Assembly (NCBI GenBank): GCA_963931165.1
Contig: OZ006985.1
Coordinates: 207,900 to 271,899 of the forward strand
Direction: 5' to 3'
DNA length: 64,000 bases
Source of the DNA: an uncultured Christensenellaceae bacterium
GTDB taxonomy: Bacteria; Bacillota; Clostridia; Christensenellales; UBA3700
Shown: one piece after another, positions 13,538-57,037 of the stretch
Numbering within the stretch: position 1 is the first letter of the stretch
How the letters are laid out: every line of letters starts with the position of its first letter
Position numbers and translations under genes: made by a program
The notes under the pieces: model-generated
Told to the model about the DNA's origin: nothing
The model's database searches: none
The model's input: the letters and a program-made list of their open reading frames with translations, nothing else

Positions 13538-16500
13538 ATGAAGTTTAGGAGAGTTTTGATCGTTGCGCTCGTCGCGCTCGTCCTGTTGAGCGCGGCGGCT
13601 TGCGTGACCGACGATGAAAAAGGCAAAGTCGAACCCGCGCAAAAGACGCAGCTGACCGCCGACATGATCACCGTCGGCGGAACATACAGCTATACCGGCG
13701 AACCCGTCTGCCCCGACCAAAGCGGAACCATCTCCGTCGTCGCAGACGGCAGTCACGTCGACGCGTCGCAATTCACCTACTCCTACTCCGACAACGTCAA
13801 CGCCGGCACCGCATCCGTCACGGTCACCGCAAAGGAATCTTGCACAAAAGTGACCGGCAGTGCGACCGCGCACTTCGAGATCGCGCCCGCGACAAAGACC
13901 TCAACCGACATCTCCGCTCTGCAAAGTCTGCTTGACGACCCCAATTACGGCATGATCTATTACGGCGGCGACGACGCGCTCGCCGCAAATTCCGTCCTCG
14001 CCGTCCCCGAGGGGAAGACGCTGCAATTGAACGACGGGCTGACCGTCAACGGCAAGCTGACCGTCGACGGCACTTTGATCGTCTACAACAACGGCAAACT
14101 GTTCGGGAGCGGATCTTTGACCAACAACGGCACGCTCGAACTGAGGCGCGGCGCACGGCTGTTCGCGCCGAGCGGCACGATCTCGGGAGACGGCGACGTC
14201 GTCAACGAGGGCACCGTCTACGTCAATTCCGCAACGAATATCGACGGCAGCGTGGTCGTGCGCCGCGACCTGTCCGATGCCGAAATATTTCTCCAATACC
14301 CCGAGCTGAAATACGATAAAGACATCGCCGAGTATACGCCGGGCAGGATAACGATCTCCCATCCCGACATCACCGGTACTGCCGACGGCGGCGGCTATTC
14401 CCCCGTCTATTCCGACAACGACGGCGTGGGCACCGCAACCGTAACTTTGAGCGCGCCTATCGACGACGAACGCTTTTTCGGTACCGCTTCGGCGACCTAT
14501 CGCATCGTCCCCGGCAACGTGACCGTCACATCGGTCGAGGACGCGCTCGACGCGCTTGCCGACGCCAATTACGGCGCCGTGCGGCTGATAGGACAGCAGC
14601 GTTATGCCGCCGACATCACCGTTCCCCAAGGCAAAACTTTGACGATCGCGTCAAGTCTTGATTGCACAGGCAAATTGACGAATCTCGGCACTCTGCAAGT
14701 CGAGGGAACGTTGATGACAGACGACTTCGACGCCGATCAAAATGCGCATATCATCAACACGGGTACGATTTTTTGCAATTGCGACTTTGTCTTTGATCCG
14801 ACCCGTACCGACAACGCAAAAGGCACGATCTACTCCTATTGCGCACAATCTCCGGACCTGCCGGGCGCGATCGAAAAGCACGACATCGCCGCCCCGTCGA
14901 CGGGCTTTGTCTTCGACCGGGCAACTCTGACTTACAACGGCGCCGCTCACGACATCTTCCCCGTCACCGCATTCGGCGCGATCGGAATACGCGACATTTC
15001 GGTCGGCTACTACCGCGACGGCAAGTCGACCAAAGACCTGACGTCCGTCGGCACGATAGAGGCGCGCTATTCCGTCGTCAAGAACTCGCGAAACGCCTAT
15101 CGCGGCAGCGCTTCCCTTTCGTTCGAGATAGTCTCCGGGACCGCAAGCGTGTCAAACCGCACCGCACTTAGCTCCGCATTGAGCGACCCCGGCTATTACC
15201 TCGTCACGATGACGGACGACATCACCGACATCGGCACCGTCCAAGTCCCCGAGGGAAAGACGCTCGACACCGGCGGAAATAAGCTGGAGTGCATCGACTT
15301 GATCAACTACGGAACCGTGCTCAACCCCTATGACGGAGACCTCTCCGACCCGTCCGCCGTAGGCGCGCTGATCAAGGCGGACAAGGTGACAAACTGCGGC
15401 AAGATCGTCAACGAAGGTATCATCGCTCTGTCGCCCCTGCAAGGCGCGTCGTGGCAGCAGCAAAGCGGCTCCGAATTCGTCAACGACGGCGTAGTATTTG
15501 TCAATGAAAACACCGAGGCCGCATTACCCGGCGATGTGCGCGTCCGCATATTCATCGACAATGTCGACATCGCACTCGAATACTCGTCGACAGACTATCA
15601 CGGCGGCGAAAAATGCCCGACGGTCACAGCAACAAAGGGCGACGCCTCAATCTCTGCGGACGATATGACCGTGATCTACGCCGACAACGTCTCTGCCGGA
15701 CAAGCGACGGTGACCGTCTCCGGAAAAGGCGGACCTTTCGCCGCGCTCGTCGGCTCGAAAACGCTCACCTTTGGGATAGAACGCGGCGCGACGACCGTGA
15801 GAGACAAGGCGTCTCTGCTCGCCGCCCTCGACGACGAAAATTGGCAGACTATCACCCTCGGCGCCGACATCGATGTCGAATCGACCTCCATCGAATTGCA
15901 CGAAAACACCACCGTCGCTTGCGAAGAATATATGCTCGTCACGGACGTCGATAACATCCCGTCCGTGCCCCAAACTTCAGCGATCACCGCGACCGCAACT
16001 TCGGTCGACAGGCTGAGCGCGCTGCTGTGCTCGGCGACATATATTACGCTCGGCAACGACTTGACCGGAAACATCATCAACGTCAAAGGGACGAAAACTC
16101 CCCTCGCCGTCACGCTCGACCTCGACGGCAAGAGCCTCGGCGCGGCGCTCTATCTCGACGGCGACGGCAACACGATCGATCTGACCGTCACAAACTCTTC
16201 GGAGACGCAAAGCTATCTCGCGGGCAACGCGTCCGCAACGGCGGCGGTCGTAATATCGGGAGATTCCAACCGCGATGTTACGCATTTGACGCTCGAGTCA
16301 ATAAACATAAACGGCATCGTCGTCGACGCGCCAAACGCTTCGGTCGATCTGACGGTCACGGGCTGCATCATCACGCAGGGCGCAAACGGCAGAGCGGTCG
16401 ATTTGAGCCGTCCGCAGTCCTCGGTTCAATCGCCGTTTGCCGCGACGTTCACCGACTGCACGATCTCGGGCGAAGAGGGCGTGTACGTCAACGCTCCGTC

Positions 16501-16807
16501 CGCAACCTTCACCCGCTGCACGATCACCGCCGAAGGCGAATACAGCGCCCCGTCGTCATACTCCAATGCCGGCAAAGGCTTTGCGGCGGCGATATACTTC
16601 AACGAAGGCGTGCCGACGTCGGTAGTCTTTGAGGAGTGCGAGCTGGAATCGTCAAACGGCTATGCGCTCGTTCAAGCTCAAAGCGACGCCTACTCTACGA
16701 CTTTTCCGGCGGCAAGCTACGCTATCCTGCTCGACGGCTGCACTCTGACCGGCGGCGACGGCAAGACTACGCGTTGCGTGTCGGAAGGCAATTTGACGAT
16801 CAAATAA
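13538..16807 (+). CDS. large secreted/surface lipoprotein with repeated adhesin-like modules
   Basis: Lipobox signal peptide MKFRRVLIVALVALVLLSAAAC. Four recurring modules of the type Y.G....P...Y(S/A)DN(V)(N/S)AG(T/Q)A(S/T)VTV....G(S/T)A...F.I. T/N/G-rich beta-helix-like stretches. Confidence 0.75.
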   Translation: MKFRRVLIVALVALVLLSAAACVTDDEKGKVEPAQKTQLTADMITVGGTYSYTGEPVCPDQSGTISVVADGSHVDASQFTYSYSDNVNAGTASVTVTAKESCTKVTGSATAHFEIAPATKTSTDISALQSLLDDPNYGMIYYGGDDALAANSVLAVPEGKTLQLNDGLTVNGKLTVDGTLIVYNNGKLFGSGSLTNNGTLELRRGARLFAPSGTISGDGDVVNEGTVYVNSATNIDGSVVVRRDLSDAEIFLQYPELKYDKDIAEYTPGRITISHPDITGTADGGGYSPVYSDNDGVGTATVTLSAPIDDERFFGTASATYRIVPGNVTVTSVEDALDALADANYGAVRLIGQQRYAADITVPQGKTLTIASSLDCTGKLTNLGTLQVEGTLMTDDFDADQNAHIINTGTIFCNCDFVFDPTRTDNAKGTIYSYCAQSPDLPGAIEKHDIAAPSTGFVFDRATLTYNGAAHDIFPVTAFGAIGIRDISVGYYRDGKSTKDLTSVGTIEARYSVVKNSRNAYRGSASLSFEIVSGTASVSNRTALSSALSDPGYYLVTMTDDITDIGTVQVPEGKTLDTGGNKLECIDLINYGTVLNPYDGDLSDPSAVGALIKADKVTNCGKIVNEGIIALSPLQGASWQQQSGSEFVNDGVVFVNENTEAALPGDVRVRIFIDNVDIALEYSSTDYHGGEKCPTVTATKGDASISADDMTVIYADNVSAGQATVTVSGKGGPFAALVGSKTLTFGIERGATTVRDKASLLAALDDENWQTITLGADIDVESTSIELHENTTVACEEYMLVTDVDNIPSVPQTSAITATATSVDRLSALLCSATYITLGNDLTGNIINVKGTKTPLAVTLDLDGKSLGAALYLDGDGNTIDLTVTNSSETQSYLAGNASATAAVVISGDSNRDVTHLTLESININGIVVDAPNASVDLTVTGCIITQGANGRAVDLSRPQSSVQSPFAATFTDCTISGEEGVYVNAPSATFTRCTITAEGEYSAPSSYSNAGKGFAAAIYFNEGVPTSVVFEECELESSNGYALVQAQSDAYSTTFPAASYAILLDGCTLTGGDGKTTRCVSEGNLTIK

Positions 16808-16835
16808 AAAGTTGCGCTCAAACCCTTGACAACTT

Positions 16836-16864
16836 TCCGCGTCCCAAAAAGGCGCGGATTTTTT
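16836..16864 (+). terminator. intrinsic terminator
   Basis: TCCGCG-loop-CGCGGA followed by T6. Confidence 0.65.
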
Positions 16865-17027
16865 GTCAAGAAGTAAGTACGCTCTTTTTTTGACGTTACG
16901 AAAAATTATCGTAACGGTCCGCATTATCCGGCACTCTCCGCCATTGCCCCGAACTTTCTATCACATTGCGGTCGCCGCGGCGACACCCGTAAACTTTTGT
17001 GTTTTGCAATAAACTTTTCGACATATA

Positions 17028-17057
17028 TTGACAAAGAATGCTTTCTCGTGCTAAACT
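17028..17057 (+). promoter_or_regulatory. putative promoter of the TIR-MTase/GNAT operon
   Basis: TTGACA (17028-17033), 18 nt, TGcTAAACT (-10 at 17052-17057), 16 nt before the ATG at 17074. Confidence 0.4.
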
Positions 17058-17073
17058 GAAATCGAGGAAAGTT

Positions 17074-18450
17074 ATGAATACAGATTACAATATTTTTCTA
17101 TGCTATCGAGGCGATAAAGGCGGCTGGCTCGCCTCGAATATCTATTCCGAACTAAAGCTCTACACAAAAGACAAGCTAAAGCTGTTCTTTGCGCCCAAAT
17201 GCATTGGGAAAGGTGAAAATTTCAAAATACGATGCGAAGCGGTTGCCGGCGACGTAAGTCTTATGATATTGATTTTATCTCCCGGATTTTTTGATGCATG
17301 CGGAGATCCCGACGACATTGTAATGTGCGAATTGCGTGCCGCACTTTCTAACGACAACACGAAGTTTTTGCCGATCATAATGCCTGGGTTCGACTTCAAA
17401 GACGTCGACCTGACAGTTCATTTCACCGATATCGAGATCGACAGAATAGGACATATCAACCCCATCAAGTACACAGACGTCTATTCTTTCAGCTCAACGG
17501 AATTGTTAGCTCCCATATTGCAGGATCGACTGGATTACAATGCGATCATAAAACCCATAGAAACCAAAAAGCGTTCTCACATCACCCATTCAAGAAGAAA
17601 TAAGCTTTTCTCCCAATCAAACACGACCGAAATCAATCGCTTGAAAGAACAGCAAAAACTGTTGCTTTCCTTTGATATGCCCGCATATGAAAAACTGCTT
17701 GCAGGCAAAAGCGATCTAAATGTGCTTGATCTCGGATGCGGCAACGGGACTGCCCTTATGAGCAGACTGGGGAACCGTCCGGAGGTGGGTAAAATAATAG
17801 GCATAGAGTTTGATGCGGACGCCGTCAATTATGCAAATACAAAATACGGAAGCGATACTGTTAAATTCTATGTGGGAGATCTCGAAAGCGATGATTTTGA
17901 AAATCTTCTCGAACGGATCATGGATGAAACTGACATCGAAAAGTTCGACTTCATCAACATGCTTGCTATTGTTTCTCACCTCAAATCCCCGTCCCGCCTA
18001 TTTAAGATTATTAAACGTTTTTGCAAAAAGGGAGCCGTTTTGCTCGTCAGGAACATCGACGACGGCATGAATATCTTTTTCCCCGATGATAATGATCGCT
18101 TTCGTCACGCATTGTCGCTACTCGCCCAATGCGAAGCCACAGGTTACAGATACTCCGGCAGAGAACTTTATACGATCATGGCAAGAAGGGGCTATAAAAA
18201 TATCACACTTGAACGTTGCGGACTGTCCACTGTCGGAATGTCATACGAAGAAAGGAGCGCCTTTTTTGACGTTATTTTCAAATTCATCAAACAGGGTATC
18301 AAAGCGGAGGCGGCAAACTCAGGCGATGCGAAATTGATCGCGGAAAAAGAATGGCTGGAAGAAGAATACGATGAAATGGAAGAAGAATTTCTTTCAAACG
18401 AGTTCTTTATGTTGTTCGGCTTCATCCTGTATACCGCAACGGTGAACTGA
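17074..18450 (+). CDS. TIR domain / class I SAM-dependent methyltransferase fusion protein (copy 1)
   Basis: N-terminus YNIFLCYRGDKGG..LILSPGFF..DDIVMCELRAAL is TIR-like, with Glu86 at 17329-17331. C-terminus has VLDLGCGNG (17722-17748), IGIEFD, FINMLAIVSHL, KKGAVLLVRNIDDG. AT-rich codon usage. Start at the ATG after an AGGAAA RBS. Confidence 0.75.
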   Translation: MNTDYNIFLCYRGDKGGWLASNIYSELKLYTKDKLKLFFAPKCIGKGENFKIRCEAVAGDVSLMILILSPGFFDACGDPDDIVMCELRAALSNDNTKFLPIIMPGFDFKDVDLTVHFTDIEIDRIGHINPIKYTDVYSFSSTELLAPILQDRLDYNAIIKPIETKKRSHITHSRRNKLFSQSNTTEINRLKEQQKLLLSFDMPAYEKLLAGKSDLNVLDLGCGNGTALMSRLGNRPEVGKIIGIEFDADAVNYANTKYGSDTVKFYVGDLESDDFENLLERIMDETDIEKFDFINMLAIVSHLKSPSRLFKIIKRFCKKGAVLLVRNIDDGMNIFFPDDNDRFRHALSLLAQCEATGYRYSGRELYTIMARRGYKNITLERCGLSTVGMSYEERSAFFDVIFKFIKQGIKAEAANSGDAKLIAEKEWLEEEYDEMEEEFLSNEFFMLFGFILYTATVN

Positions 18451-18451
18451 C

Positions 18452-18970
18452 ATGCAAGACAAATTCTTGATCAAAAAACTCGATTCGACCTATATATCGG
18501 CAATGCTTGATCTTCAAGACGAAGTGATAGGCAAACTCGACAATCCCGACATATTAAGAAAAAACACGATCGACACCCTATCTCCTTGTTTCGATCCGCC
18601 GTCTCTTGTGCTCGGAGCATTCTGCGATGATCTGTTTGTTGCGTTCGGCATTCTCTATTATGCCGGCGATGATCATGAAAACCTTGCATACTCTCTTGAT
18701 AAGCACAACGACCTCTACTCATATGCCAATATTAAAGTCGTGATTGTAAAAGACGGTTATCGCGGACACGGTCTACAACAAACATTTATACGCAACTTTG
18801 AAGAATATGCCAAAACCATCGGAGTAAAAACATTGCTTTCGACCGTATCACCCGACAATATGTACAGCTGTCGCAATTTGGAACAATGCGGATACATATC
18901 GGTGAAGCGTCTGAAAAAATATGGCGGCAAAGATCGCTTGCTTTACATGAGAAACTTAGGGGAACATTGA
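18452..18970 (+). CDS. GNAT-family N-acetyltransferase
   Basis: VIVKDGYRGHGLQQTFIRNFEEYAK (R/Q-x-x-G-x-G/A acetyl-CoA loop), 172 aa. The ATG is 1 nt after the upstream TGA. Confidence 0.75.
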   Translation: MQDKFLIKKLDSTYISAMLDLQDEVIGKLDNPDILRKNTIDTLSPCFDPPSLVLGAFCDDLFVAFGILYYAGDDHENLAYSLDKHNDLYSYANIKVVIVKDGYRGHGLQQTFIRNFEEYAKTIGVKTLLSTVSPDNMYSCRNLEQCGYISVKRLKKYGGKDRLLYMRNLGEH

Positions 18971-19089
18971 TCCCCTTCTTCTCGTTCACTCTTCTTTCGG
19001 CAATGAGCAATGGTTCTCCCGTATGACCGTATACCTTGCGCAGCCGGTTTTGACGTGTTTGCCCGTATATCCGTTGCTTATTTGACAAG

Positions 19090-19842
19090 CTAAAACGAGC
19101 CTATGCCGTACGACGTCCCTTTCGGCAGCAACTGCGGCAATATCTCGCGGTATCTGCCCTCTTCGGACGGGTCGGTCAAGATCAGATCGACGTGCGGCGC
19201 GCCGTGCAATTCGCACGTCCGCGCGATACGGGACGCAACGCCATCCGCACCGTCAAAGACGGGACAGCAAAAGCGCTTTGAGATGAATTCGGCAAGATAG
19301 GAGTAGTGCGTGCACCCGATCACGACCGCGCCCAAGTCCGCGCGCGGATACGCCGACAGGATGCGCTCCGCCTCCGCCTTTGCGCGTTTGAGGTCGGGCA
19401 GCCCATACTCGACAAGATGAGCAAGGCGCGAACAATCGGGAGTGTTGACCTTTGCTCCGCTCGCTTTGAGCAATGCGGCAAAGCGCGGCTGTTTGAGCGT
19501 CAGCGGCGTCGCCATCACCGTCAACTTGTCATACCTCGCCGCCGCAGGCTTGATCGCCGGCTCGGTACCGACAAATTCTATGTCGGAAAACTCGGCGCGC
19601 AATTCGTCAATGCAGACTGCGGTCGCCGTGTTGCACGCGAGCACGATCGTCTTTGCCCCCAAGTCTTTGAGCCGCGCACAATTGGCGCGCATAACATTTT
19701 GCAGCCACAGTTCGGACAAGCGTCCGTAAGGTGCATGAGCGTTGTCGGCAAAATATAATATTTTTCCTGCCCGTGTGCGTTCAAGCAACTTTTTGACGAC
19801 GAATAGTCCGCCCATGCCCGAGTCGGTGACCGCTATATCCAT
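19090..19842 (-). CDS. murI: glutamate racemase
   Basis: IAVTDSGMGGL..VLACNTATA..VIGCTHY, with both catalytic Cys motifs. Confidence 0.92.
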   Translation of the reverse strand: MDIAVTDSGMGGLFVVKKLLERTRAGKILYFADNAHAPYGRLSELWLQNVMRANCARLKDLGAKTIVLACNTATAVCIDELRAEFSDIEFVGTEPAIKPAAARYDKLTVMATPLTLKQPRFAALLKASGAKVNTPDCSRLAHLVEYGLPDLKRAKAEAERILSAYPRADLGAVVIGCTHYSYLAEFISKRFCCPVFDGADGVASRIARTCELHGAPHVDLILTDPSEEGRYREILPQLLPKGTSYGIGSF

Positions 19843-19875
19843 ACCATAATACTATGCGCGAGCTACGGCGCGTTT

Positions 19876-20583
19876 TCATGAATACGCGGCAAAAATCGCT
19901 GCGGCGATCGTATTTGCGCACTCGCCGACAACGCTTTCGGCGTCGTAGGGAATGACGCTCCTTTGCCCCTCCGTCGTGTCGACGGCGCAGATCAGAGGCA
20001 CTCCGACCGCGAGCACTCGCGTCCCGATGTAGTCGCCGTCGATGCACTTTCCGCCCGCGCCCGTTCCGCTCCCGGGGCGGATCCCTGCCGTCGTCAATTG
20101 ATAGCACGCGCCTATCTTGCGCCAATCCGTCGTCGCGAGCGCGTCCGCGGCGATCACGAGATCGGGCTTGACGGCGCCCGCAAGAGAGGCGATCACGTCC
20201 GCGGAGTCCACTCCCGTCACCGACCTGACTTCGGGCAGCACGGTCAAAAACGCGCCGTTTCTGTCCAGCCGCCTCAAAGCATTCACAGCATCTGCGCCGA
20301 ACGCGTCGGAGACAAAAGACGAATTGCCAAGCCCCGCGACCAACACCTTTGCGCCTCGCGCAAGCCGCCTCATCGCATAGGCGAGCGCACGCGCCGCGGC
20401 GCTTCCCGTCACGGTACAATAGTCGCCCTCTCTTCGGCTCAGCGCCCTTGCCGCAGCCTCGTCGATGTGCGAAAAGCGCAACTCACAGCCGTACTTCTTC
20501 TCCAACCGCGAGATGTACCCGCCGCGCCATGCGGCGGCGTCCGAAAGCAGGTCCGAACCGTCCGATATCAAAAATTTTTCCAT
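19876..20583 (-). CDS. gpr: GPR-type spore (germination) protease-like peptidase, short form
   Basis: VLVAGLGNSSFVSDAFG..KPDLVIAADALA..QLTTAGIRPGSGTG..LAVGVPLI matches the A25 peptidase blocks. It sits next to rpsT, as gpr does in Bacillus. Shorter than the canonical ~370 aa. Confidence 0.55.
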   Translation of the reverse strand: MEKFLISDGSDLLSDAAAWRGGYISRLEKKYGCELRFSHIDEAAARALSRREGDYCTVTGSAAARALAYAMRRLARGAKVLVAGLGNSSFVSDAFGADAVNALRRLDRNGAFLTVLPEVRSVTGVDSADVIASLAGAVKPDLVIAADALATTDWRKIGACYQLTTAGIRPGSGTGAGGKCIDGDYIGTRVLAVGVPLICAVDTTEGQRSVIPYDAESVVGECANTIAAAIFAAYS

Positions 20584-20710
20584 ATCAAGAGCATTGACAC
20601 AAAGCGGCAAAACGATAGCGTTTGCGGCGCTTTTTACTCATATTTGCTCCCGCGGACGCGACTTTGGCGCTCAAAAGCGCAAAAATACTCAAAAAAGCGC
20701 GTGCATTTTA

Positions 20711-20739
20711 TTGCTTTATGGGCGCAAGTGTGCTAAAAT
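20711..20739 (+). promoter_or_regulatory. rpsT promoter
   Basis: TTGCTT (20711-20716), 17 nt, TGcTAAAAT (-10 at 20734-20739). Confidence 0.5.
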
Positions 20740-20770
20740 GTTTTAGCAAATACGAAAACGGAGGGAACCT

Positions 20771-21043
20771 ATGCCTAACATTAAGTCCCAGAAAAAGAGA
20801 GTCGGCATCTCCGCCAAAGAGAACGAGATCAACGTCGCGAAGCGCAGCAGAGTCCGCGGCGCGATAAAGAAGTTCCAGGCGGCTGTCGAGGCGAAGGATT
20901 TCGAGAATGCGGAGAAGCTTCTGCGTGAGGCGATCTCTTTGATCGACTGCGCGAAGAACGACGGCATCTACAAGGCAGAGACGGCAAGCAGGAAGATCGG
21001 CAGACTTTCCAAGCAGCTGGACAAAGCGAAGAAAGCCGAGTGA
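20771..21043 (+). CDS. rpsT: 30S ribosomal protein S20
   Basis: MPNIKSQKKRVGISAKENEINVAKRS..KAETASRKIGRLSKQL. Confidence 0.95.
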   Translation: MPNIKSQKKRVGISAKENEINVAKRSRVRGAIKKFQAAVEAKDFENAEKLLREAISLIDCAKNDGIYKAETASRKIGRLSKQLDKAKKAE

Positions 21044-21062
21044 TTTGAACGAACGAAGTTCG

Positions 21063-21085
21063 GCGCGCCGTAAGGCGCGCTTTTT
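21063..21085 (+). terminator. intrinsic terminator (first of a tandem pair)
   Basis: GCGCGCC-gtaa-GGCGCGC followed by T5. Confidence 0.7.
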
Positions 21086-21095
21086 ATTAAGTTCG

Positions 21096-21121
21096 GTGCG
21101 CCGCAAGGCGCGCTTTTTTTG
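21096..21121 (+). terminator. intrinsic terminator (second, duplicated copy)
   Basis: GTGCGCC-gcaa-GGCGCGC followed by T8. The 30-nt unit AAGTTCGG(C/T)GCGCCG(T/C)AAGGCGCGCTTTTT is directly repeated. Confidence 0.7.
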
Positions 21122-21323
21122 TCGATCTTCGCTTTGCCGGTTTGATCGGCGTTTGCGGCGTTTGCTCAAACTCCAAGCCCGCAACGCCTTCCCCGACACG
21201 CATATCTTTACATTGTGTTTCGGCTTTCAAAGCGCAGCCGTTGAAAGTGCGGCGGACGAGACAAAGATGGTCCCGTCCGCCGCGTCATTTGAAAAAAGCG
21301 GCTCCCTTTCGGAGCCGCGCATT

Positions 21324-22295
21324 TTATCTCCAAAGCACTTCGAGCGTCTTGCGGTCGAGCACTCCCCATCTGCCGTCCTCGCGGACGATCGCCCTGCCGT
21401 CCTCGAACGGCGTCGCGACGTCGAACCTGAGCGACACCGCCTCTTCGCCCTGTTTGTCGATGTAGCCCGACTTCTCGCCGACGGTGACGGACGCAAGCCC
21501 GTCGCTGAACGAAGTCGCCGAATCAAATTTGAAGTCGATGACGACGTCGCCCTTCTTGTCGATATATCCGAGTTTGCCGTCCCTCTCCACGCAGGCGAGA
21601 TCTTCGGAGAACTCAAAGGCGTCGTCGTAATCGGGCTGTATGACGACGTTGCCCTTGCGGTCGCGGTAGCCCCACTTGCCCTTGCGGTTGAACTTGACGA
21701 TCGCGTCCGGCGGCAGCGGCTCGCGTTGCGGCTTTTCGACGACGGGCGCAGGCTCGCGCTTGCCGTAAACGATCTCGTAAAGGCTCATGCCGGCATACGG
21801 GTCGCGCTCCTTGCGCTGTTGCTTGCTCTTGCCGTCGCGACGGTCGTTTTTGTCCCTGCGGTCGTCGCGGCTATCTTTGCGGTCTTTGCCGCATTCGCCG
21901 CCCTGCCTCTTTTCATCGCGCTTTGCGCCGCTCTGCGCCTGTTCGGGCTGACGGCGGTCGCGCTTGCCTTCGGGACGAGCGTCGCGGACGGGCTTTTCGC
22001 CCTGCCCCTGCGCGGGCTGCTCGTCGTCGGGACGGAAGTCAAGCCCCAGCTTGGTAAGAGCGCCCTTGACCTCAAAGCATTGTTTTTTGCCTATGTTTTG
22101 GATGCGATACATCTCGCGCATACGGCGCGCCGCAAGATCGCGCGCAGTCGCTATGCCGCCCTTTGCGAGCAATTCCGCGGTGCGTTCGGACAATCCGAGC
22201 TCCCCGAGCGGAGTCGAAAGCGCCTTTTCGTCGCCGACCGGCGTATATTCGTCGCGCTGTTTGCGCGGGCGATTGTGTTTGAAATTTTTTCCCAT
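21324..22295 (-). CDS. RpoA-CTD-like helix-hairpin-helix / basic linker / WG-repeat protein
   Basis: N-terminus LGELGLSERTAELLAKGGIATARDLA..MYRIQNIGKKQCFEVKGAL resembles the RNA polymerase alpha CTD. C-terminus has KWGYRDRKGNVVIQPDYDDA, KLGYIDKKGDVVIDFKFDSA, KSGYIDKQGEE, GRWGVLD (WG/KWG repeats). Start at MGKNFKH (22293-22295). Confidence 0.7.
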   Translation of the reverse strand: MGKNFKHNRPRKQRDEYTPVGDEKALSTPLGELGLSERTAELLAKGGIATARDLAARRMREMYRIQNIGKKQCFEVKGALTKLGLDFRPDDEQPAQGQGEKPVRDARPEGKRDRRQPEQAQSGAKRDEKRQGGECGKDRKDSRDDRRDKNDRRDGKSKQQRKERDPYAGMSLYEIVYGKREPAPVVEKPQREPLPPDAIVKFNRKGKWGYRDRKGNVVIQPDYDDAFEFSEDLACVERDGKLGYIDKKGDVVIDFKFDSATSFSDGLASVTVGEKSGYIDKQGEEAVSLRFDVATPFEDGRAIVREDGRWGVLDRKTLEVLWR

Positions 22296-22531
22296 ATCGT
22301 TATTATACCACCGAGCGGGCAAAATGGCAACCTCTCGCGCGTGTATGAGCGCTCCGAGCGAGTCGATTTGGGGCGCATGCGGCAAAGTATTGCGCGATTT
22401 TCGCGCGCGCATATAAAAATGTATATAATTTTGAAAACATATATAAAAAGTGTTTACAAATGCCGCGCGAATGCATATAATACTACACGCAAAGACCGAC
22501 ACGTCTCAGCATATGAAAAGAGGTATGAATT

Positions 22532-23044
22532 ATGGCAAAGTATAAGAGATGCCCCCGCTGCGAACTCAATTGGATCCCCGAAGAAGAGGAATATTGCGAC
22601 GTCTGCAAGGCGGAGTTGAAGATCGGCGGCGCCAGCCTCCTCGAAGACGAAGAGGAAGAATTGTGCCCCATCTGCCACGTCAACTATCTCGAACCGGGCG
22701 AAAAGATATGCTCCTATTGCGCGCAGAAAAACCCGGACAAAGCCGATGACGACGAGCACGTCTACAACATCGACGACACCGATCGCTCGGAAGAAGACCT
22801 CGAAAAGGTCTCGTTCGACGAGCTTGCCGAAGAGGAAAGCTGGGCAGACTATGACGAGCCGTTCGACGACAACGAGAACTTCGACGACGCCGACTATGCC
22901 GACGACGAAGAAGATGACGAAGATGAAGAGGAAGAACAGTTCAAAGACGACATAGAGGACGACTTCGACTATGACATCGACAGCGTCGAGGATATCGACG
23001 AGGACGAAGAAGAGGACGAAGACCCCGGCAACGACGAAGATTGA
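22532..23044 (+). CDS. double zinc-ribbon protein with strongly acidic tail
   Basis: CPRC..CDVC and CPIC..CSYC pairs, followed by about 100 aa of D/E-rich sequence. Confidence 0.6.
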   Translation: MAKYKRCPRCELNWIPEEEEYCDVCKAELKIGGASLLEDEEEELCPICHVNYLEPGEKICSYCAQKNPDKADDDEHVYNIDDTDRSEEDLEKVSFDELAEEESWADYDEPFDDNENFDDADYADDEEDDEDEEEEQFKDDIEDDFDYDIDSVEDIDEDEEEDEDPGNDED

Positions 23045-23084
23045 CATGCCGCCCTGCGTTTAGCGGGGCGATTTTTCCAAATTT

Positions 23085-23735
23085 ATGACGATAGCCGTTT
23101 GCATAAATAACGAAAACATCGCCGACCTGATCAAAGGTCTGATGAGCGCCACCCTTCCCGACGCGCAGTTCGAGAAATATGACGCTCAAACTTTGCCATA
23201 CTTTTCCGGCACGATCTCGATGGTGCTGTGCGACGCGGAGTCGCTGTTGCACATATGGCAAAACGACAAACTCCGCGCCCACTATCTGCCGAGCAATCCG
23301 ATCGCGATGATCGTCAACATCAACGGCAAACCCGAAATATTTTACAAATCGTACACAAGCCAAGGCTTGAGAACGCTTGGCATGAAGCGCATCGGCGCCG
23401 AACCGTCGCCGATGATACCGCTGTTCCACTCTCTCGCCGAGATCACCGAAGACGGCAAGTCGGACGACTATTTTCTCTATACGGGCGGAAGTTCCGGCGG
23501 CGGTCAATTCGCGGTCCGCTACGGCGACGACACCTTGATCGCGCAATATGCCGACAATGTCAAAAGCGGTTCGCGCACCATCATTTCAGTCGCCGGAGAG
23601 CGCCGCATAGGCAGACTTCGCCTGCACAAAGACGGCGTGTCGATCGAAGGAAAATTCTACTCCTATCAAGAGTGTGAGACATTGCCGCTCTACATAATCG
23701 CACGCATCCAAAAGGTACTCAAAGGGCGCAATTGA
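23085..23735 (+). CDS. hypothetical protein (216 aa)
   Basis: Clean ORF with ordinary composition. No family recognised. Confidence 0.5.
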   Translation: MTIAVCINNENIADLIKGLMSATLPDAQFEKYDAQTLPYFSGTISMVLCDAESLLHIWQNDKLRAHYLPSNPIAMIVNINGKPEIFYKSYTSQGLRTLGMKRIGAEPSPMIPLFHSLAEITEDGKSDDYFLYTGGSSGGGQFAVRYGDDTLIAQYADNVKSGSRTIISVAGERRIGRLRLHKDGVSIEGKFYSYQECETLPLYIIARIQKVLKGRN

Positions 23736-23754
23736 ACTTAAAAGCGTAAAATTG

Positions 23755-23784
23755 TTGCCCTCTCTTTGCAAGTTTTGATATAAT
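23755..23784 (+). promoter_or_regulatory. putative promoter of TIR-MTase copy 2
   Basis: TTGCCC (23755-23760), 18 nt, TATAAT (23779-23784). RBS GAGGGA lies before ATG 23812. Confidence 0.4.
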
Positions 23785-23811
23785 TATAACATTAAACGAT
23801 GAGGGAACATT

Positions 23812-25107
23812 ATGTCTTTGACCGATCATGAATACGACTTCTTTATAAGTTATTCCAATGCAGATACCGACCCGGTCTCTTCCATTGTCGAGAGTTTGGA
23901 AAATGATTACAAAGCAAAATGCTGGTTTCAAGAAAAAGATTCCAAAGCCGAATTCATTGATGAAATCATGTCAGGGATCGAAAACTCGAAAGTGTTTATT
24001 CTGTTCATAAGCGAACACTCTGCAAACTCCTATTTTGTTTTGAACGAGATCAATCATGCAACCGAATGGCGCTGCCAAAAAGAAGACTATAAAATCATAC
24101 CGATCATAATCGACAAAACAAAGCAAGATGTTGCCGATGCGGCATACAAAAGAGTACGCTTCTATTTGGGTAGATTGAACATACTGAATGCCAATACTTT
24201 TGACTCCATAGACTCTTTGATATTGAAAATATTCGAGCAAGCGGAAATCGACTTGCCTGATAGATCTTTGCATAAAAGTCTATATCATTCGAGCGAAAGT
24301 GAAAACGCACGGCTTTGCGCTCAAAACGAAATACTCCGCAACTTTTCATCGGAATTTTTTACTAAATACACTACGCCCGATTCCTACATCCTTGATATCG
24401 GATGCGCCTCGGGGGAAAATATTATCCTAAGATTGGAAGGCATAGCTTATACCGCTCTGCTTGGATTGGATATTGACGAAAAACAAGTAGAATGCGCAAC
24501 CAATCGTTTTGGCGACAATAAAAACACTTTTCTCAAATGCGACGTCATGTCCCCCGAGCTGGATGATATTTTGGAAGACTACATGGAGCGAAACGATATT
24601 ATCGGTTTTGATGTGATCCACATTTCCGCGGTTCTGTTGCACTTGGACGATCCGCTCGACTTATTGCGACGTCTCCGCAGATATTTGAAAAAAACCGGAG
24701 TCTTGTTCATACAAGATGAGGACGACGGAGCCAATATCGTATATCCAAATTCCAAATTTTTCAATCGTGCATTTGAAATATGGGCAGATTCCGAAGAAAG
24801 CGGCGACAGGTTCTGCGGAAGGAAAATACCCTCCTATTTGTCGGCTGCCGGATATAAATATTGTAATTTGGCAAAGTGCGGAGTTTCAAACACTGCGCTC
24901 TCAAAAGATCAGCATTCGGCATTGTGGGACATTTATTTCAATTATCATCTTTGGCTTGCCGTTGAAGAAAATATGTTTCGCAATCCAAACAAAACCGCTA
25001 AGCTGTTGAACGATTATATCGCCGAATACGACACTTACAAAAAAGCCTACGATAACGGCGAGATATTTATTCAATTGGGATTCATGTTTTTCCTGGCAAG
25101 AAAATAA
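23812..25107 (+). CDS. TIR domain / class I SAM-dependent methyltransferase fusion protein (copy 2)
   Basis: N-terminus YDFFISYSNADTD..CWFQEKD..SKVFILFISEHSANSYFVLNEINHA (TIR_2-like, Glu79 at 24046-24048). C-terminus has ILDIGCASGEN, LGLDID, VIHISAVLLHL, KKTGVLFIQDEDDG. AT-rich. Confidence 0.78.
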   Translation: MSLTDHEYDFFISYSNADTDPVSSIVESLENDYKAKCWFQEKDSKAEFIDEIMSGIENSKVFILFISEHSANSYFVLNEINHATEWRCQKEDYKIIPIIIDKTKQDVADAAYKRVRFYLGRLNILNANTFDSIDSLILKIFEQAEIDLPDRSLHKSLYHSSESENARLCAQNEILRNFSSEFFTKYTTPDSYILDIGCASGENIILRLEGIAYTALLGLDIDEKQVECATNRFGDNKNTFLKCDVMSPELDDILEDYMERNDIIGFDVIHISAVLLHLDDPLDLLRRLRRYLKKTGVLFIQDEDDGANIVYPNSKFFNRAFEIWADSEESGDRFCGRKIPSYLSAAGYKYCNLAKCGVSNTALSKDQHSALWDIYFNYHLWLAVEENMFRNPNKTAKLLNDYIAEYDTYKKAYDNGEIFIQLGFMFFLARK

Positions 25108-25340
25108 TGCCATTACAATACAATTTTCCTGCCCGTGTCTGTTATCGATGTCAATGTGCGCGGAGTTTGCTTCTGTTCATCTCCTGTGAGCACGCATTCC
25201 CAATTGCCGACGAGTCGCTTTGATCGTCTGCCCGCCGTATAGAACGCGGCGTCTCTCCCCCGTCGTCCAAGCAAATTTTAGCATCGCGCGGCGGCGATGT
25301 CAAATGCTTATTTTTTATGTCCCATCATACTTCGCGGGCA

Positions 25341-25365
25341 TAAAAAACGCGCCCGAAGGCGCGTC
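25341..25365 (-). terminator. gpmI intrinsic terminator
   Basis: Minus strand reads GACGCGCC-ttcg-GGCGCGT followed by T6. Confidence 0.7.
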
Positions 25366-25382
25366 CTTTGTCGTTGGTTTTG

Positions 25383-26918
25383 TCACTTCACGAGCAGCGA
25401 ATGCCCGGTCATCTCGGACGGGATCGCGAGCCCCATCGCGTCGAGCATGGTCGGGGCGATGTCGCACAGCCTGCCGCCGTCGGCAAGCGCCTTGACGCCG
25501 TCGACGCCGATCGCGATGAACGGCACGGGGTTGGTCGTGTGCGCGGTGAACGGAGTGCCGTCCGCGTCGAACATGTGATCGCAGTTTCCGTGATCGGCGG
25601 TGACGAATGCCTGTCCGCCTACGGACAAGATCGCGTCGACGACCTTTTGAACGCACTCGTCGGTGACCTCGACCGCCTTTTTCGCCGCTTCCATGACGCC
25701 GGTGTGACCGACCATGTCACAATTTGCGAAGTTGAGGATCATCACGCCGTACTTGCCGCTCTTTATCTCCTCGACAGCCCTGTCGGCGACCTCGTACGCG
25801 CTCATCTCGGGCTTCATATCGAATGTCGCGATCTTGGGGGACGGGATGAGGATGCGATCTTCGCCCTCGTTCGGCGCCTCGACGCCGCCGTTGAAGAAGA
25901 AGGTGACGTGCGCATACTTTTGCGTCTCCGCGATGCGGAATTGCTTTATGCCCTGCTTGGCAAGATATTCGCCGAGCGTGTTGGTGTAGCTCTCGGGGCG
26001 GAACGCGACGTCGAGCGCGTCGTTGAAGGTCACGTCGTATTGAGTGAACGACACGAAGTGCGGCGCGAGGAACCCCTTCGCCCTCGGGAAGGACGCGAAG
26101 TCGGGATAGATGAACGAACGGGTGATCTGACGCGCGCGGTCGGGACGGAAGTTGAAGAAGACGACGCTGTCGCCCTCGTCGACCGTCGCGACGGGCTTGC
26201 CGCCGTCCGTAAGCACGGTCGGGATCACAAACTCGTCGGTCACGCCCTTGTCATAGCTGTTTTGCATCGCCTCGATAGGGTCGCTCTCCTCTATGCCTTT
26301 GCCGTCGACGAGCGCTTCGTATGCCTTTTGGACCCTGTCCCAAATGTTGTCGCGGTCCATCGCGTAGAATCTGCCCGAGATCGTCGCGATCTTGCCGAAG
26401 CCGAGTTTGTCCAAATGCGCTTGAAGCTGTTCGATGTAGCCCTTGCCGCTCTCGGGAGGGGTGTCCCTGCCGTCCATAAAGCAGTGGATGTAGACGTTGT
26501 CCAGCCCGCGTCTTTTCGCCATCTCGACCAGCGCGAACAGGTGGGTGATGTGGCTGTGCACGCCTCCGTCGGAGACAAGCCCCATCACATGCAGCTTTTT
26601 GCCGTCCCTCTTGGCGTCGTCCATCGCCTTGACGAGCGCGGGATTGGTGAAAAAGTCGCCGTCCTCGATCGCCTTGGTGATGCGGGTGAGTTCTTGATAG
26701 ATGACCCTGCCGGCACCGATATTGAGGTGACCGACCTCGCTGTTGCCCATCTGTCCTTCGGGAAGACCGACCGCAAGCCCGCTCGCCTTGAGCCGAGTGG
26801 AGGGATATTTGTCCTGCATCGCGATCACTCGCGGAGAAGTCTCGGGCGAGATCGCGTTGTCGGGACCGTACGGAGCGATGCCGTAGCCGTCCATGATGAT
26901 AAGTCCTGTGAATTTCAT
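25383..26918 (-). CDS. gpmI: 2,3-bisphosphoglycerate-independent phosphoglycerate mutase
   Basis: LIIMDGYG..GNSEVGHLNIGAGR..VSDGGVHSH..TADHGN, 511 aa. Confidence 0.95.
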   Translation of the reverse strand: MKFTGLIIMDGYGIAPYGPDNAISPETSPRVIAMQDKYPSTRLKASGLAVGLPEGQMGNSEVGHLNIGAGRVIYQELTRITKAIEDGDFFTNPALVKAMDDAKRDGKKLHVMGLVSDGGVHSHITHLFALVEMAKRRGLDNVYIHCFMDGRDTPPESGKGYIEQLQAHLDKLGFGKIATISGRFYAMDRDNIWDRVQKAYEALVDGKGIEESDPIEAMQNSYDKGVTDEFVIPTVLTDGGKPVATVDEGDSVVFFNFRPDRARQITRSFIYPDFASFPRAKGFLAPHFVSFTQYDVTFNDALDVAFRPESYTNTLGEYLAKQGIKQFRIAETQKYAHVTFFFNGGVEAPNEGEDRILIPSPKIATFDMKPEMSAYEVADRAVEEIKSGKYGVMILNFANCDMVGHTGVMEAAKKAVEVTDECVQKVVDAILSVGGQAFVTADHGNCDHMFDADGTPFTAHTTNPVPFIAIGVDGVKALADGGRLCDIAPTMLDAMGLAIPSEMTGHSLLVK

Positions 26919-27203
26919 AAAAACCTCTTTGGCTTTCGCCTCAAAATTTTGCCTTTGCGGCTTTTTCGGCTATATTTTAGCACAACGCAAAAATATAGTC
27001 AATCTCCTGACCGCACACAAAATTGCGGACGCAGATCCTAAATTCAGGCGTCAAAAGCGTATTAACGGTCAATTGTCCGCATTTTGCCCTGTTTTTTGGT
27101 ATTGCCTAAAATGCGTGCACAACTACAAAAAGTGCAATATAATTGATATAATAATATTGTTAGACAGACGGAGATCTCCTTCCGGCTGTCACGGAGATCA
27201 GGT

Positions 27204-27416
27204 ATGACACTGCAGGAGCAAATTTCGGAAAACATCAAGGCTGAGATCCTCGCCTCCGACAAGACAAAGAGTCAGATCGCCGCGGAGATCGGCGTGTCCA
27301 AACCCACTTTGTCGCAATATCTGTCGGGAAGGATCCAACCGTCGCTGCTCACCTTTGCAAAACTTTGTAAGGCGATCGGCGCGTCTGCGGACGAGATCCT
27401 CGGCTTGACAAAATAA
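27204..27416 (+). CDS. XRE-family helix-turn-helix transcriptional regulator (70 aa)
   Basis: KSQIAAEIGVSKPTLSQYLSGRIQPSLLTFAKLCKAIGASADEILGL is a typical HTH_3 pattern. Confidence 0.75.
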   Translation: MTLQEQISENIKAEILASDKTKSQIAAEIGVSKPTLSQYLSGRIQPSLLTFAKLCKAIGASADEILGLTK

Positions 27417-27446
27417 GCCGTCGCTCACTTATCCGTTTTTCGGCAA

Positions 27447-27485
27447 CAAAAAATTGCCGCGGTCACTCCGCGGCAATTTTTTGCC
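27447..27485. terminator. bidirectional intrinsic terminator (tpiA and the XRE gene)
   Basis: AAATTGCCGCGG-tcact-CCGCGGCAATTT, flanked by A-runs and T-runs on both sides. Confidence 0.75.
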
Positions 27486-27491
27486 ATTTTT

Positions 27492-28247
27492 TCAGCCGTT
27501 GTATTTGACGACCTGCGAGAAGTCGACCGCTTTGAGCGACGCTCCTCCGATCAGTCCGCCGTCGATCTGAGGCATCGCCATCAGCTCTTTGGCGTTCTTG
27601 GGATTCATCGAGCCGCCGTATTGGATGCGAACTCTCTCCTCGGCGTTCTTCTCGCCGTAGAGCTCGCCCATAGTGCGGCGAATGATCGCGATCGTGTCGT
27701 TCGCGTCCTGAGCGGTAGCGGTCTTGCCGGTGCCGATCGCCCAAACGGGCTCGTACGCGATGACGATGTTGTCAAGGTCTGCGGCGTCGACGCCGTCGAA
27801 CGCGCCCTTGGTCTGTCTGACGAGCACTTCTTCGACCTTGCCGCCCTCTCTCTCCTCAAGGGTCTCTCCGACGCAGATGATGGGTTTGAGTCCCTTTGCA
27901 AGCGCGGTCTTGACGCGCTTGTTGACGGTCTCGTCCGTCTCGCCGAAGTATTGACGGCGCTCGCTGTGTCCGATGATGACGTACTCGACGCCCTGTTCGA
28001 GCAGCATATCGGCGCTGATCTCGCCGGTGAAAGCTCCCTTTTCAGCCCAATGCACGTTCTCCGCGCCCAGCTTGATGTTGGTGCCCTTGATCGCGTCGCC
28101 CGCAGCCCAAATGCTGGTGTACGGCACGCAGATGACGACCTCCGCCTCGGCGTCCGCGACGAGCGGGATGAGATCGTTGAGCAGCGCATAGGTCTGCGCC
28201 TTGGTGTTGTTCATCTTCCAGTTGCCTGCAATGATGGGTCTTCTCAT
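27492..28247 (-). CDS. tpiA: triose-phosphate isomerase
   Basis: IIAGNWKMN..IIGHSERR..AYEPVWAIGTG..YGGS. Confidence 0.95.
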   Translation of the reverse strand: MRRPIIAGNWKMNNTKAQTYALLNDLIPLVADAEAEVVICVPYTSIWAAGDAIKGTNIKLGAENVHWAEKGAFTGEISADMLLEQGVEYVIIGHSERRQYFGETDETVNKRVKTALAKGLKPIICVGETLEEREGGKVEEVLVRQTKGAFDGVDAADLDNIVIAYEPVWAIGTGKTATAQDANDTIAIIRRTMGELYGEKNAEERVRIQYGGSMNPKNAKELMAMPQIDGGLIGGASLKAVDFSQVVKYNG

Positions 28248-29782: not shown

Positions 29783-29800
29783 TTCCCATTTTAGTGGGAA
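29783..29800. promoter_or_regulatory. operator-like palindrome 1
   Basis: TTCCCA-ttttag-TGGGAA. Confidence 0.5.
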
Positions 29801-29811
29801 GTCAACTAAAA

Positions 29812-29829
29812 TTCCCAATTTTGTGGGAA
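29812..29829. promoter_or_regulatory. operator-like palindrome 2
   Basis: TTCCCA-attttg-TGGGAA, 29 bp centre-to-centre from site 1 and 10 nt upstream of the XRE start codon. Confidence 0.5.
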
Positions 29830-29838
29830 GATAGTTAT

Positions 29839-30045
29839 ATGGACACAACATTCGGGGAACGATTGAGAGAATTGCGCAAAGAGGCGGGGCTTGGACAGAT
29901 CGCCCTCGCCGAAAAGCTGGGTGTGGGCAAGTCTGTGATCAGCCTTTGGGAGTTGAACAAATGTGAGCCGACTCTGTCCAACCTCGTCGCGATCGCGCGC
30001 TTTTTTGACGTGTCGCTCGACTGGCTGGCGGGGCTTGAGGACTGA
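29839..30045 (+). CDS. XRE-family helix-turn-helix transcriptional regulator (68 aa)
   Basis: FGERLRELRKEAGLGQIALAEKLGVGKSVISLWELNKCEPTLSNLVAIARFFDVSLDWL. ATG 29839 preferred over the listed GTG 29794, which lies inside the operator repeats. Confidence 0.7.
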   Translation: MDTTFGERLRELRKEAGLGQIALAEKLGVGKSVISLWELNKCEPTLSNLVAIARFFDVSLDWLAGLED

Positions 30046-56607: not shown

Positions 56608-56694
56608 GCGGACATGGCGGAATTGGCAGACGCGTAAGATTCAGGTTCTTATGGTCGAAAGGCTGTGCAGGTTCAAGTCCTGTTGTCCGCACCA
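56608..56694 (+). tRNA. tRNA-Leu (anticodon CAG)
   Basis: Hand-folded cloverleaf: acceptor GCGGACA/TGTCCGC, anticodon stem TAAGA/TCTTA with loop TTCAGGT, long variable arm, T-loop GGTTCAAGTCC, encoded CCA. Confidence 0.9.
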
Positions 56695-57007: not shown

Positions 57008-57037
57008 CGCTATTTCGGCTCGCTTCCTCCCCCGCCA

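Follow-up and report, generated by a model that had tools for sequence, protein, structure and literature searches.

The 64,000-nucleotide stretch of DNA analysed here (the window), from an uncultured Christensenellaceae bacterium, carries a gene (23812..25107, plus strand; hereafter copy 2) whose 431-aa product joins an N-terminal TIR domain to a class I methyltransferase of the type that uses S-adenosylmethionine (SAM). A diverged relative, copy 1, lies upstream of it (17038..18450). Copy 2 sits in a horizontally acquired, strain-variable single-gene cassette (23738-25123), and its sequence, together with the analogy to known systems, points most readily to a self-contained immune protein of the abortive-infection type, directed against phages or other invaders and with the methyltransferase-like module in control. 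We hold this reading tentatively, at a little below even confidence. In bacteria, plants and animals alike, TIR NADases hold a central place among immune effectors, and the systems that employ them differ in how they are switched on. In the family described here TIR is joined to a conserved small-molecule-type methyltransferase, a partner domain that had not been described in that role before.

The fusion was recognised from the list of open reading frames, from Pfam and from an AlphaFold2 (AF2) model with a mean predicted local distance difference test score (pLDDT) of 92.4 and a predicted TM-score of 0.72. The TIR domain covers residues ~8-145 (23833..24246, plus strand) and is supported by Pfam, by profile matches to the PDB and by the model. 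Pfam reported TIR_2 (E = 6.9e-18, aa 10-107) and TIR (1.2e-8), both above the curated cut-offs, and a match to ThsB_TIR (5.5e-6) that falls far below the fit to TIR_2. Comparison of a profile of the copy-2 family with the PDB placed Cat1 (1e-16), TIR-STING and SARM1/tir-1 (~1e-11) closest, with AbTIR also among the closest, and in the TIR part of the model strands and helices alternate in flavodoxin-like order, most of the domain having a pLDDT above 89. Residue conservation was counted in an alignment of 50 homologues. The putative catalytic glutamate, Glu79 (codon GAG, 24046..24048, plus strand), lies in SYFVLNEI and is kept in all 50 sequences; its surroundings, S-x-x-F/W-V-x-x-E, form the context typical of NAD-cleaving TIRs. 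F11, S13 and W38 are, like E79, invariant or nearly so. Judged by the Pfam match and the conservation of Glu79, copy 2 carries a genuine TIR that looks catalytic.

The remainder of the protein (aa 155-431; 24274..25104, plus strand) was assigned through Pfam, the PDB profile comparison and Foldseek as a class I SAM methyltransferase module bearing a cap helix at its N terminus and an extension at its C terminus. Five Pfam models, including Methyltransf_12, Methyltransf_23, Methyltransf_31 and Methyltransf_11, match aa 182-304 above their cut-offs at 5e-13 to 1e-7, the best being Methyltransf_12 (5e-13) and the four named lying between 5e-13 and 6e-10. Motif I, the SAM-binding loop, reads ILDIGCASGEN (24388..24420, plus strand), its LDIGCASG core having alanine in place of the middle glycine. 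At the SAM site, D195 is present in 50 of the 50 homologues, G197 in 48, G201 in 43, an aspartate or glutamate at position 220 in 48, and D244 in 45. Three cap-helix residues (E164, R167, Q171) are invariant or nearly so, as are D302, D304, D305, G306, G331, R333 and R337 in a pocket specific to the family; D304 and D305 occur in 49 of 50 sequences, and the same count holds for G331, R333 and R337. The IQDEDDG motif after strand 5 (24709..24729, plus strand), taken with G331, R333 and R337, is the most conserved family-specific feature and forms a putative ligand or substrate pocket.

The best structural match of the module is 3mgg, a methyltransferase of Methanosarcina mazei, both in the comparison of the family profile with the PDB (4.6e-23) and in Foldseek (E = 5e-15, with a target-normalised TM-score of 0.72-0.78, for both copies). 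Like our family, 3mgg has an N-terminal Y..E.E..RL..Q cap helix and a G-R pocket, but it lacks a TIR and has IEGDHG where the family has I-Q-D-E-D-D-G; because 3mgg is itself uncharacterised, it gives no clue to the substrate. Further Foldseek neighbours are JHAMT, BC_2162, PMT (phosphoethanolamine N-methyltransferases), RebM, BioC and TleD, with the same result for copy 1. The top 50 matches listed are all methyltransferase-fold proteins, and no DNA or RNA methyltransferase is among them. The methyltransferase of copy 2 looks, on these comparisons, to be of the small-molecule type and able to bind SAM.

We define the TIR-MTase (methyltransferase) fusion family as proteins of 420-470 aa with an N-terminal TIR containing the glutamate, an E-x-x-R-L-x-x-Q cap helix, motif I, D-x-D-D-G and G-x-R...R, and copy 2 shows all of these features. 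A first-pass annotation of this DNA, made from the sequence letters, had proposed the 431-aa reading frame at 23812-25107, a set of domain motifs and Glu79 at 24046-24048, all of which are present in the translation, and its TIR and class I methyltransferase assignments agree with our hidden Markov model, profile-versus-PDB and AlphaFold/Foldseek searches. Its argument that the fusion is no assembly artefact is likewise borne out: copy 2 has more than 100 full-length homologues (421-449 aa, down to ~32% identity), both active-site signatures are conserved, and 11 intact alleles occur within the species.

The accessory nature of the gene is evident from many same-species metagenome contigs whose flanks are 95-99% identical to the window. 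By blastn against two of these (L013 and L021), the sequences 22001-23737 and 25124-27000 show 98-98.7% identity and enclose unrelated DNA, with junctions at 23737/23738 and 25123/25124; the foreign cassette (23738..25123) therefore measures 1,386 bp, with a GC content of 0.40. In its stead the two contigs carry a 922-bp cassette with a DUF3737 gene and a GC content of 0.53. The slot, bounded by a conserved 216-aa gene and by gpmI, has two alternative occupants, TIR-MTase on the plus strand and DUF3737 on the minus strand; of the 10 places shown for the sampled same-species contigs, copy 2 fills 8. Across 23500-25250 the GC content is 0.37-0.43, against ~0.6 in the flanks, and the GC content at third codon positions (GC3) is 0.46 for copy 2 against 0.69-0.86 for the neighbouring genes. 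The cassettes were probably exchanged through homologous recombination within the conserved flanking sequence. Neither the copy-1 nor the copy-2 islet is bordered by notable direct or inverted repeats, no tRNA was found near either, and no Rfam element was found in 16000-27500.

The first-pass annotation had placed copy 2 in an AT-rich patch between a hypothetical gene and the gpmI terminator; the composition and the terminator hairpin agree with this, but the patch replaces a DUF3737 gene rather than occupying empty intergenic DNA. It had also proposed looking for each islet in related genomes, and among near-identical strains each proved to be present or absent independently of the other. 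Strain variability and the GC3 of copy 2 mark it as an accessory gene, not a core gene with native codon usage.

Signals for expression lie within and beside the cassette. A promoter-like site (TTGCCC-18 nt-TATAAT with TG before it; 23755..23784, plus strand), which scored 10/12 in a consensus scan, is predicted inside the cassette, and a Shine-Dalgarno-like GAGGGA is predicted by sequence reading 5 nt 5' of the ATG (23801..23806, plus strand). The earlier suggestion that copy 2 has its own promoter is supported to the extent of this consensus match only. The sole terminator-like site downstream, from a terminator scan and sequence reading, is that of gpmI, a GC-rich hairpin with U-tracts on both sides (25347..25364). 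A strong promoter-like site on the minus strand (TTGACA-17 nt-TAAAAT with TG before it; 25275..25303; consensus scan 11/12) lies in the conserved flank, faces the 3' end of copy 2 and is antisense to it. In the alternative allele the minus-strand DUF3737 gene lies downstream of this site; because the GC content of that allele is near native and this strong site stands upstream of it in the conserved flank, we suggest that DUF3737 is the older occupant of the slot. In the window the same site could drive antisense transcription across the TIR-MTase gene.

Copy 1 (470 aa, plus strand), identified through Pfam, hhalign, a clade profile and AF2, belongs to a separate islet of 2,139 bp (16985..19123), delimited by blastn against L003, L001 and L016 and by gene tables, which also contains a GNAT acetyltransferase gene (18452..18970, plus strand; Pfam Acetyltransf_1, 5.7e-6). 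The islet, with both genes, is present in some strains, and in others ~55 bp stand in its place. The two copies were said in the first-pass annotation to repeat the same domain order and to align block by block. By BLASTP, copies 1 and 2 share 30% identity over aa 154-378 (E = 5e-35), so that the likeness holds for the methyltransferase and C-terminal part but the TIR parts do not align. The shared domain order escapes Pfam, which from the single sequence of copy 1 detects the methyltransferase but not the TIR; it emerges from profile methods. With hhalign, the copy-2 family aligns with residues 13-470 of copy 1 (E = 1.5e-63), VLNEI standing opposite VMCEL, and a profile of the copy-1 clade matches the TIRs of tir-1 (2.6e-6) and SARM1 (~2e-4). 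Copy 1 retains E98, NIDDG and G-Y-R...GR, and its AF2 model has a mean pLDDT of 82.3. Its clade comprises 95 matches of ~460-470 aa annotated "class I SAM-dependent methyltransferase". In a neighbour-joining tree of the methyltransferase module, which is a quick distance tree and not a maximum-likelihood one, the two copies fall in deeply separated clades, in agreement with the earlier statement that they did not arise by recent duplication.

In relatives of copy 1 at 52-55% identity (L085-L088) a GNAT gene lies directly downstream, 45-48% identical to that of the window, and a more distant relative (39% identity) is without it. Because GNAT stays directly downstream in these relatives, copy 1 and GNAT are a two-gene module; copy 2, which as the first-pass annotation noted has no GNAT gene adjoining it, is a single-gene module. 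Both copies occur in L014, L015, L018 and L022, copy 1 alone in L013 and L021, and copy 2 alone in L016, L017, L019, L020, L001 and L003, and no contig with neither copy was found among the same-species contigs sampled. The copies are independent accessory cassettes, gained and lost separately, and since each occurs without the other an obligate partnership between them is impossible.

Several features adjoining copy 1 also vary. Homology between alleles with and without copy 1 starts only at 19124, so that the 3' end of murI (19090-19123) belongs to the variable part; the last ~11 codons of murI vary with the state of the islet, and murI is called as 241, 250 or 251 aa depending on the strain. 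Just upstream of the islet, a 1089-aa repeat-rich protein (13538-16807) without a Pfam or PADLOC match is itself strain-variable, being missing in L001, where mnmA lies almost directly before murI. In L085-L087 the copy-1-type gene and GNAT are followed by a gene for a ~990-aa protein with TIR_2 and HD_3 domains, and in L086 a GmrSD_N protein gene and an NMN-transporter (PnuC-like) gene, an NAD-related neighbour, precede the copy-1-type gene.

Outside the species, the distribution of the family is patchy. A search of 1.84 billion cluster representatives gave 61 matches at E <= 1e-30 and 368 at E <= 1e-10. A full-length copy was found in ~45 GTDB species representatives, the best being that of Candidatus Alloclostridium intestinigallinarum (66% identity); the carriers are mostly gut and rumen Clostridia, with some Bacteroidaceae, one Treponema and some Bacillales. 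The few copy-2 homologues that bear a name in their source carry only the label "TIR domain-containing protein". In other species the genes stand at unrelated loci, for example beside greA, prfB or a DEAD helicase gene. Within the species all 11 distinct copy-2 alleles are intact, and the ratio of nonsynonymous to synonymous polymorphism (pN/pS) was 0.15-0.38 in the eight allele comparisons with synonymous differences, each resting on few substitutions. Among homologues that share 25-66% identity, the motifs show strong conservation.

To survey neighbours, open reading frames within three genes on each side were clustered for ~48 loci. No conserved partner of copy-2-type genes appeared, no cluster occurring in more than three syntenic loci, and the absence of a conserved neighbour across these loci indicates that the copy-2 protein is self-contained. 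Among 136 flanking proteins the commonest Pfam families were GNAT, TIR_2 and HTH_3, with four occurrences each, and no PADLOC family was found in more than three. Defence-type genes do stand near some members: a TIR-LRR protein gene in L010, a TIR-HD protein gene and GmrSD in L085-L087, and an Eco47II restriction-modification pair in L008. In L051, an unrelated rabbit-gut Clostridia metagenome-assembled genome, a homologue (7303-7635; 42% identity) of the 170-aa protein of the window with a double zinc ribbon and an acidic tail (22532-23044) lies immediately upstream of the TIR-MTase gene, which may be coincidence or remnant synteny.

The methyltransferase module (aa ~155-431) is the constant part of a wider set of architectures. 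It occurs alone, as proteins of ~285-300 aa (P0138, P0145, P0151, P0154), and it is found fused to TIR, to a cytidine deaminase (P0147) or to a C-terminal GNAT (P0214, P0221, P0224). In P0147 (L091, 4256-5680), matches to dCMP_cyt_deam_1 (9.6e-15) and MafB19-like (2.6e-10) take the place of TIR, and close by are genes for a YhcG/DUF1016 nuclease-like protein and a 1120-aa PLD-SNF2 helicase. In the neighbour-joining tree the methyltransferase-only forms are nested in TIR-fused clades and the MTase-GNAT fusions make a separate clade. Interchangeable N-terminal domains on a constant module are the pattern of a conserved sensor with swappable effectors.

Paralogues also recur in close proximity. 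Copy-2-like and copy-1-like genes lie ~2 kb apart in L045 and L046; in L047 the order is a copy-2-like gene, a rubrerythrin gene, a fusion of TIR to a methyltransferase-like module lacking the SAM loop (CLDVNVLSTRGS), and GNAT; and L067 has, in a row, genes for a TIR, for a methyltransferase alone and for a fusion of TIR to a degenerate methyltransferase (VFNPAVYEVSS). In the fusions without a SAM loop (L047, 8359-9669, minus strand; L067, 8868-10190, plus strand; P0176), the TIR glutamate is retained, along with E and R of the cap helix and the motifs DD(G/N) and G-x-R. An intact methyltransferase of the family beside or near a degenerate form suggests a pairing of active enzyme and pseudo-enzyme. 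Because relatives that have lost the SAM loop keep both pocket and TIR glutamate, their sequences also suggest that methyl transfer is dispensable in some lineages and the pocket is not. The idea in the first-pass annotation that the two copies act together thus stands in part: joint action is not obligatory, as either copy occurs alone, but nearby pairs of diverged paralogues do recur in other lineages.

From these observations we infer an NADase activity, a defence role and a sensor role for the methyltransferase module. In the mechanism we propose, the N-terminal TIR would be the effector, cleaving NAD+ by means of Glu79, and the C-terminal module would bind SAM and a small ligand in the pocket formed by D302/D304/D305/G306 and G331/R333/R337. 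The module would act as the sensing or regulatory part, a change in bound or converted ligand linked to infection altering self-association of the protein. Self-association might then gather TIR domains into active NADase assemblies, which would deplete NAD+ and arrest growth. Cat1, TIR-STING, TIR-SAVED and SARM1, in which a ligand-binding domain on the same chain governs TIR assembly, supply the working analogy.

We favour this reading because TIR, deaminase and GNAT are swapped on a constant module, and because lineages without SAM binding keep the pocket and the TIR glutamate. It is further supported by the closest solved TIRs, which include NAD-cleaving TIRs joined to a ligand-sensing domain (Cat1, TIR-STING, SARM1/tir-1), and by the accessory character of the gene, with its foreign GC3, its precise swap with DUF3737, its unrelated loci elsewhere and its patchy distribution. 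The repeated proximity of family members to TIR and other defence-type genes, and the intactness of the 11 alleles with pN/pS of 0.15-0.38, lend it support as well.

Several points weigh against an immune role. What the family does, and what triggers it, are entirely matters of inference, and we found no paper on a TIR fused to a class I methyltransferase in the open-access literature searched. No PADLOC model spans copy 2, the matches being partial ones to the core of mad2 and, in the TIR, to PDC-S66 and ThsB. Housekeeping genes make up most of the surroundings of family members, and the survey of 136 flanking proteins did not demonstrate that the family is enriched in defence islands. Because the DUF3737 occupant and the 1089-aa and 216-aa proteins have no PADLOC matches, the slot of copy 2 is not demonstrable as a defence hotspot. 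Searches of IMG/VR contigs, INPHARED phages and PLSDB plasmids turned up no relatives, so the gene is not travelling on the common carriers of defence genes that those collections contain. Finally, the SAM-binding and pocket residues of most members are conserved as they would be in a working enzyme, and an enzyme with two activities would fit this conservation equally well.

Comparison with known systems places the family near several of them and inside none. Cat1 (a CARF-TIR protein of type III CRISPR), TIR-STING and the TIR-SAVED of the cyclic-oligonucleotide-based antiphage signalling system (CBASS) combine, as copy 2 does, a TIR of the NAD-cleaving type with a Rossmann-like or nucleotide-binding ligand domain in one chain, and copy 2 has a PADLOC SAVED_TIR match of 3.9e-5. 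In copy 2, however, the partner is a class I SAM methyltransferase rather than CARF, STING or SAVED, and the order is an N-terminal TIR followed by a catalytic-looking enzyme. We rejected a CBASS or type III CRISPR TIR effector on account of the C-terminal methyltransferase, and no CD-NTase or Cas10 was seen in the neighbourhoods. Thoeris shares with copy 2 a bacterial TIR with a conserved glutamate, and there are weak matches to ThsB_TIR in Pfam (5.5e-6) and to ThsB in PADLOC (2.4e-5); it was rejected because neither form of ThsA (SIR2-SLOG or Macro-TM) was found in the window or same-species contigs and no neighbour is conserved over the ~48 loci. SARM1 and tir-1 resemble the family in the catalytic-glutamate architecture of the TIR, and control by an attached metabolite-binding domain is the working analogy drawn from them; our family differs in being bacterial, in having a partner of methyltransferase fold, and in lacking ARM and sterile alpha motif domains. 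The candidate system PDC-S66 of PADLOC was also set aside, its match (8.8e-8) spanning model positions 145-253 of 282 and the TIR part only. P0147, with a cytidine deaminase in place of TIR on the same module, recalls dCTP-deaminase defence by analogy only. SAM-dependent methyltransferases are associated with KomBC, the NADase effector module of Kongming (bioRxiv 10.1101/2024.12.20.629578), but no KomB or KomC homologue was seen in the neighbourhoods examined and copy 2 has no kinase-like domain, so that here too the likeness is one of analogy.

The main rival to an immune NADase under methyltransferase control is a truly bifunctional small-molecule enzyme, which we consider possible but doubtful. 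The TIR would cleave or cyclise NAD+ or another nucleotide, and the methyltransferase would add a methyl group to the resulting product or to the base set free, such as nicotinamide or the ADP-ribose moiety, to give a modified nucleotide signal or an irreversible sink for NAD+; for copy 1, GNAT would add a further modification step. That both active sites are conserved together (E79, D195, G197, D/E220 and D244, at the counts given above) fits such an enzyme, as do structural neighbours that are all small-molecule or natural-product enzymes and the linkage of the module to two other small-molecule-modifying types, GNAT and cytidine deaminase. The row of TIR, methyltransferase-only and TIR/pseudo-methyltransferase genes in L067 is consistent with it too, and dITP, the base-modified nucleotide immune signal of Kongming, offers a precedent (bioRxiv 10.1101/2024.12.20.629578). 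Yet a signalling version would need a receptor or effector, and copy-2-type genes are without a conserved partner; moreover, relatives that have lost the SAM loop retain the TIR glutamate, no substrate can be deduced, and product chemistry is established for no member.

A non-immune accessory role in gut bacteria seems to us rather unlikely. Here an NAD-metabolising TIR would feed a metabolite pool or a host interaction, or the protein would serve detoxification or resistance by methylating, with or without acetylation, a cationic small molecule; in both cases the TIR would be a nucleosidase or a binding domain. The near-confinement of the family to gut and rumen anaerobes and its mostly housekeeping neighbours are in keeping with this, gut bacterial TIRs are NADases that make cyclic ADP-ribose variants in vivo (PMC9092222), and the acidic DEDDG pocket would suggest a cationic substrate. 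The GNAT partner matches the ArsN1 (4e-5) and Sat4 (2e-4) models weakly, both far below cut-offs, and the MTase-GNAT fusion P0224 adjoins a MatE efflux pump. However, every match to a resistance family is far below its cut-off, no biosynthetic or transport genes are consistently linked across the ~48 loci, and presence or absence at strain level, several diverged paralogues per genome and the deaminase swap are more typical of conflict systems.

It is also conceivable, although we think it improbable, that TIR immunity is coupled to SAM chemistry by the methyltransferase module, acting as a catalytic sensor. In one possible version the module would monitor SAM, S-adenosylhomocysteine, or a SAM-derived or methylatable nucleotide altered by infection (for instance by a phage SAM lyase) and gate assembly of the TIR NADase. 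In another, it would methylate the TIR product or released nicotinamide, giving a new class of methylated NAD-derived messengers or an NAD+ sink closed to salvage. In both versions, the GNAT partners and those relatives whose SAM loop is degenerate would serve as regulatory or tailoring subunits. We found no paper on defence triggered by SAM depletion or SAM lyase, and a sensor of this kind, if real, would give TIR immunity a sensing logic that has not been described before.

Self-marking, in which host DNA or RNA would be labelled by the methyltransferase and invaders lacking the label would set off the TIR, is very unlikely. Its support is the PADLOC match to mad2 (3.5e-11 for copy 2, 1.9e-11 for copy 1), the N6-adenine DNA methyltransferase of the methylation-associated defence system (MADS), an eight-gene operon that requires MAD6-8 (bioRxiv 10.1101/2023.03.30.534895). 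The match is confined to the generic Rossmann core (positions 251-397 of 492), and the protein has no target-recognition or nucleic-acid-binding domain. Copy 2 differs from mad2 in lacking the amino-methyltransferase motif IV, with FDVIHIS at strand 4 where (D/N)PP(Y/F) would be expected; with that motif missing and structural neighbours that are all small-molecule methyltransferases, we rejected identity as a DNA methyltransferase. Membership of MADS was rejected as well, the match being partial, MAD6-8 being absent here, and the neighbours being the 216-aa hypothetical gene and gpmI. Scarcely credible at all is a decaying or neutrally hitch-hiking gene without current function, to which the foreign composition, the housekeeping surroundings and the lack of a demonstrated function might point, given 11 of 11 alleles intact at pN/pS of 0.15-0.38, strong motif conservation across homologues at 25-66% identity, a promoter-like site and ribosome-binding site of its own, and occupancy of the slot in 8 of 10 places.

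Uncharacterised candidate defence genes are numerous. If the reading of copy 2 as a self-contained immune protein is correct, the family would provide a small system, encoded by one gene, from gut Clostridia that have received little study, and could bring to light either infection sensing through SAM or methylation, or a new product made from NAD. Natural polymorphism at these loci, TIR-MTase or DUF3737 in one slot and copy 1 present or absent in the other, offers ready comparisons in metagenomes and isolates.

Elsewhere in the window, a third AT-rich islet (56700-59450, GC ~0.37) lies between tRNA-Leu (56608-56694, plus strand) and tRNA-Arg (59489-59565, minus strand). It contains a gene for a 274-aa predicted membrane protein without a Pfam match (57334-58158, minus strand) and a 23S_rRNA_IVP four-helix-bundle gene (58400-58747, minus strand; 4.1e-22). 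Two small Xre-type helix-turn-helix genes (27204-27416 and 29794-30045) stand among the glycolysis genes gpmI, tpiA and pgk and are kept in all strains examined, and the first of them has weak PADLOC matches to helix-turn-helix components (PDC-M69A, 2e-6; RmrA).

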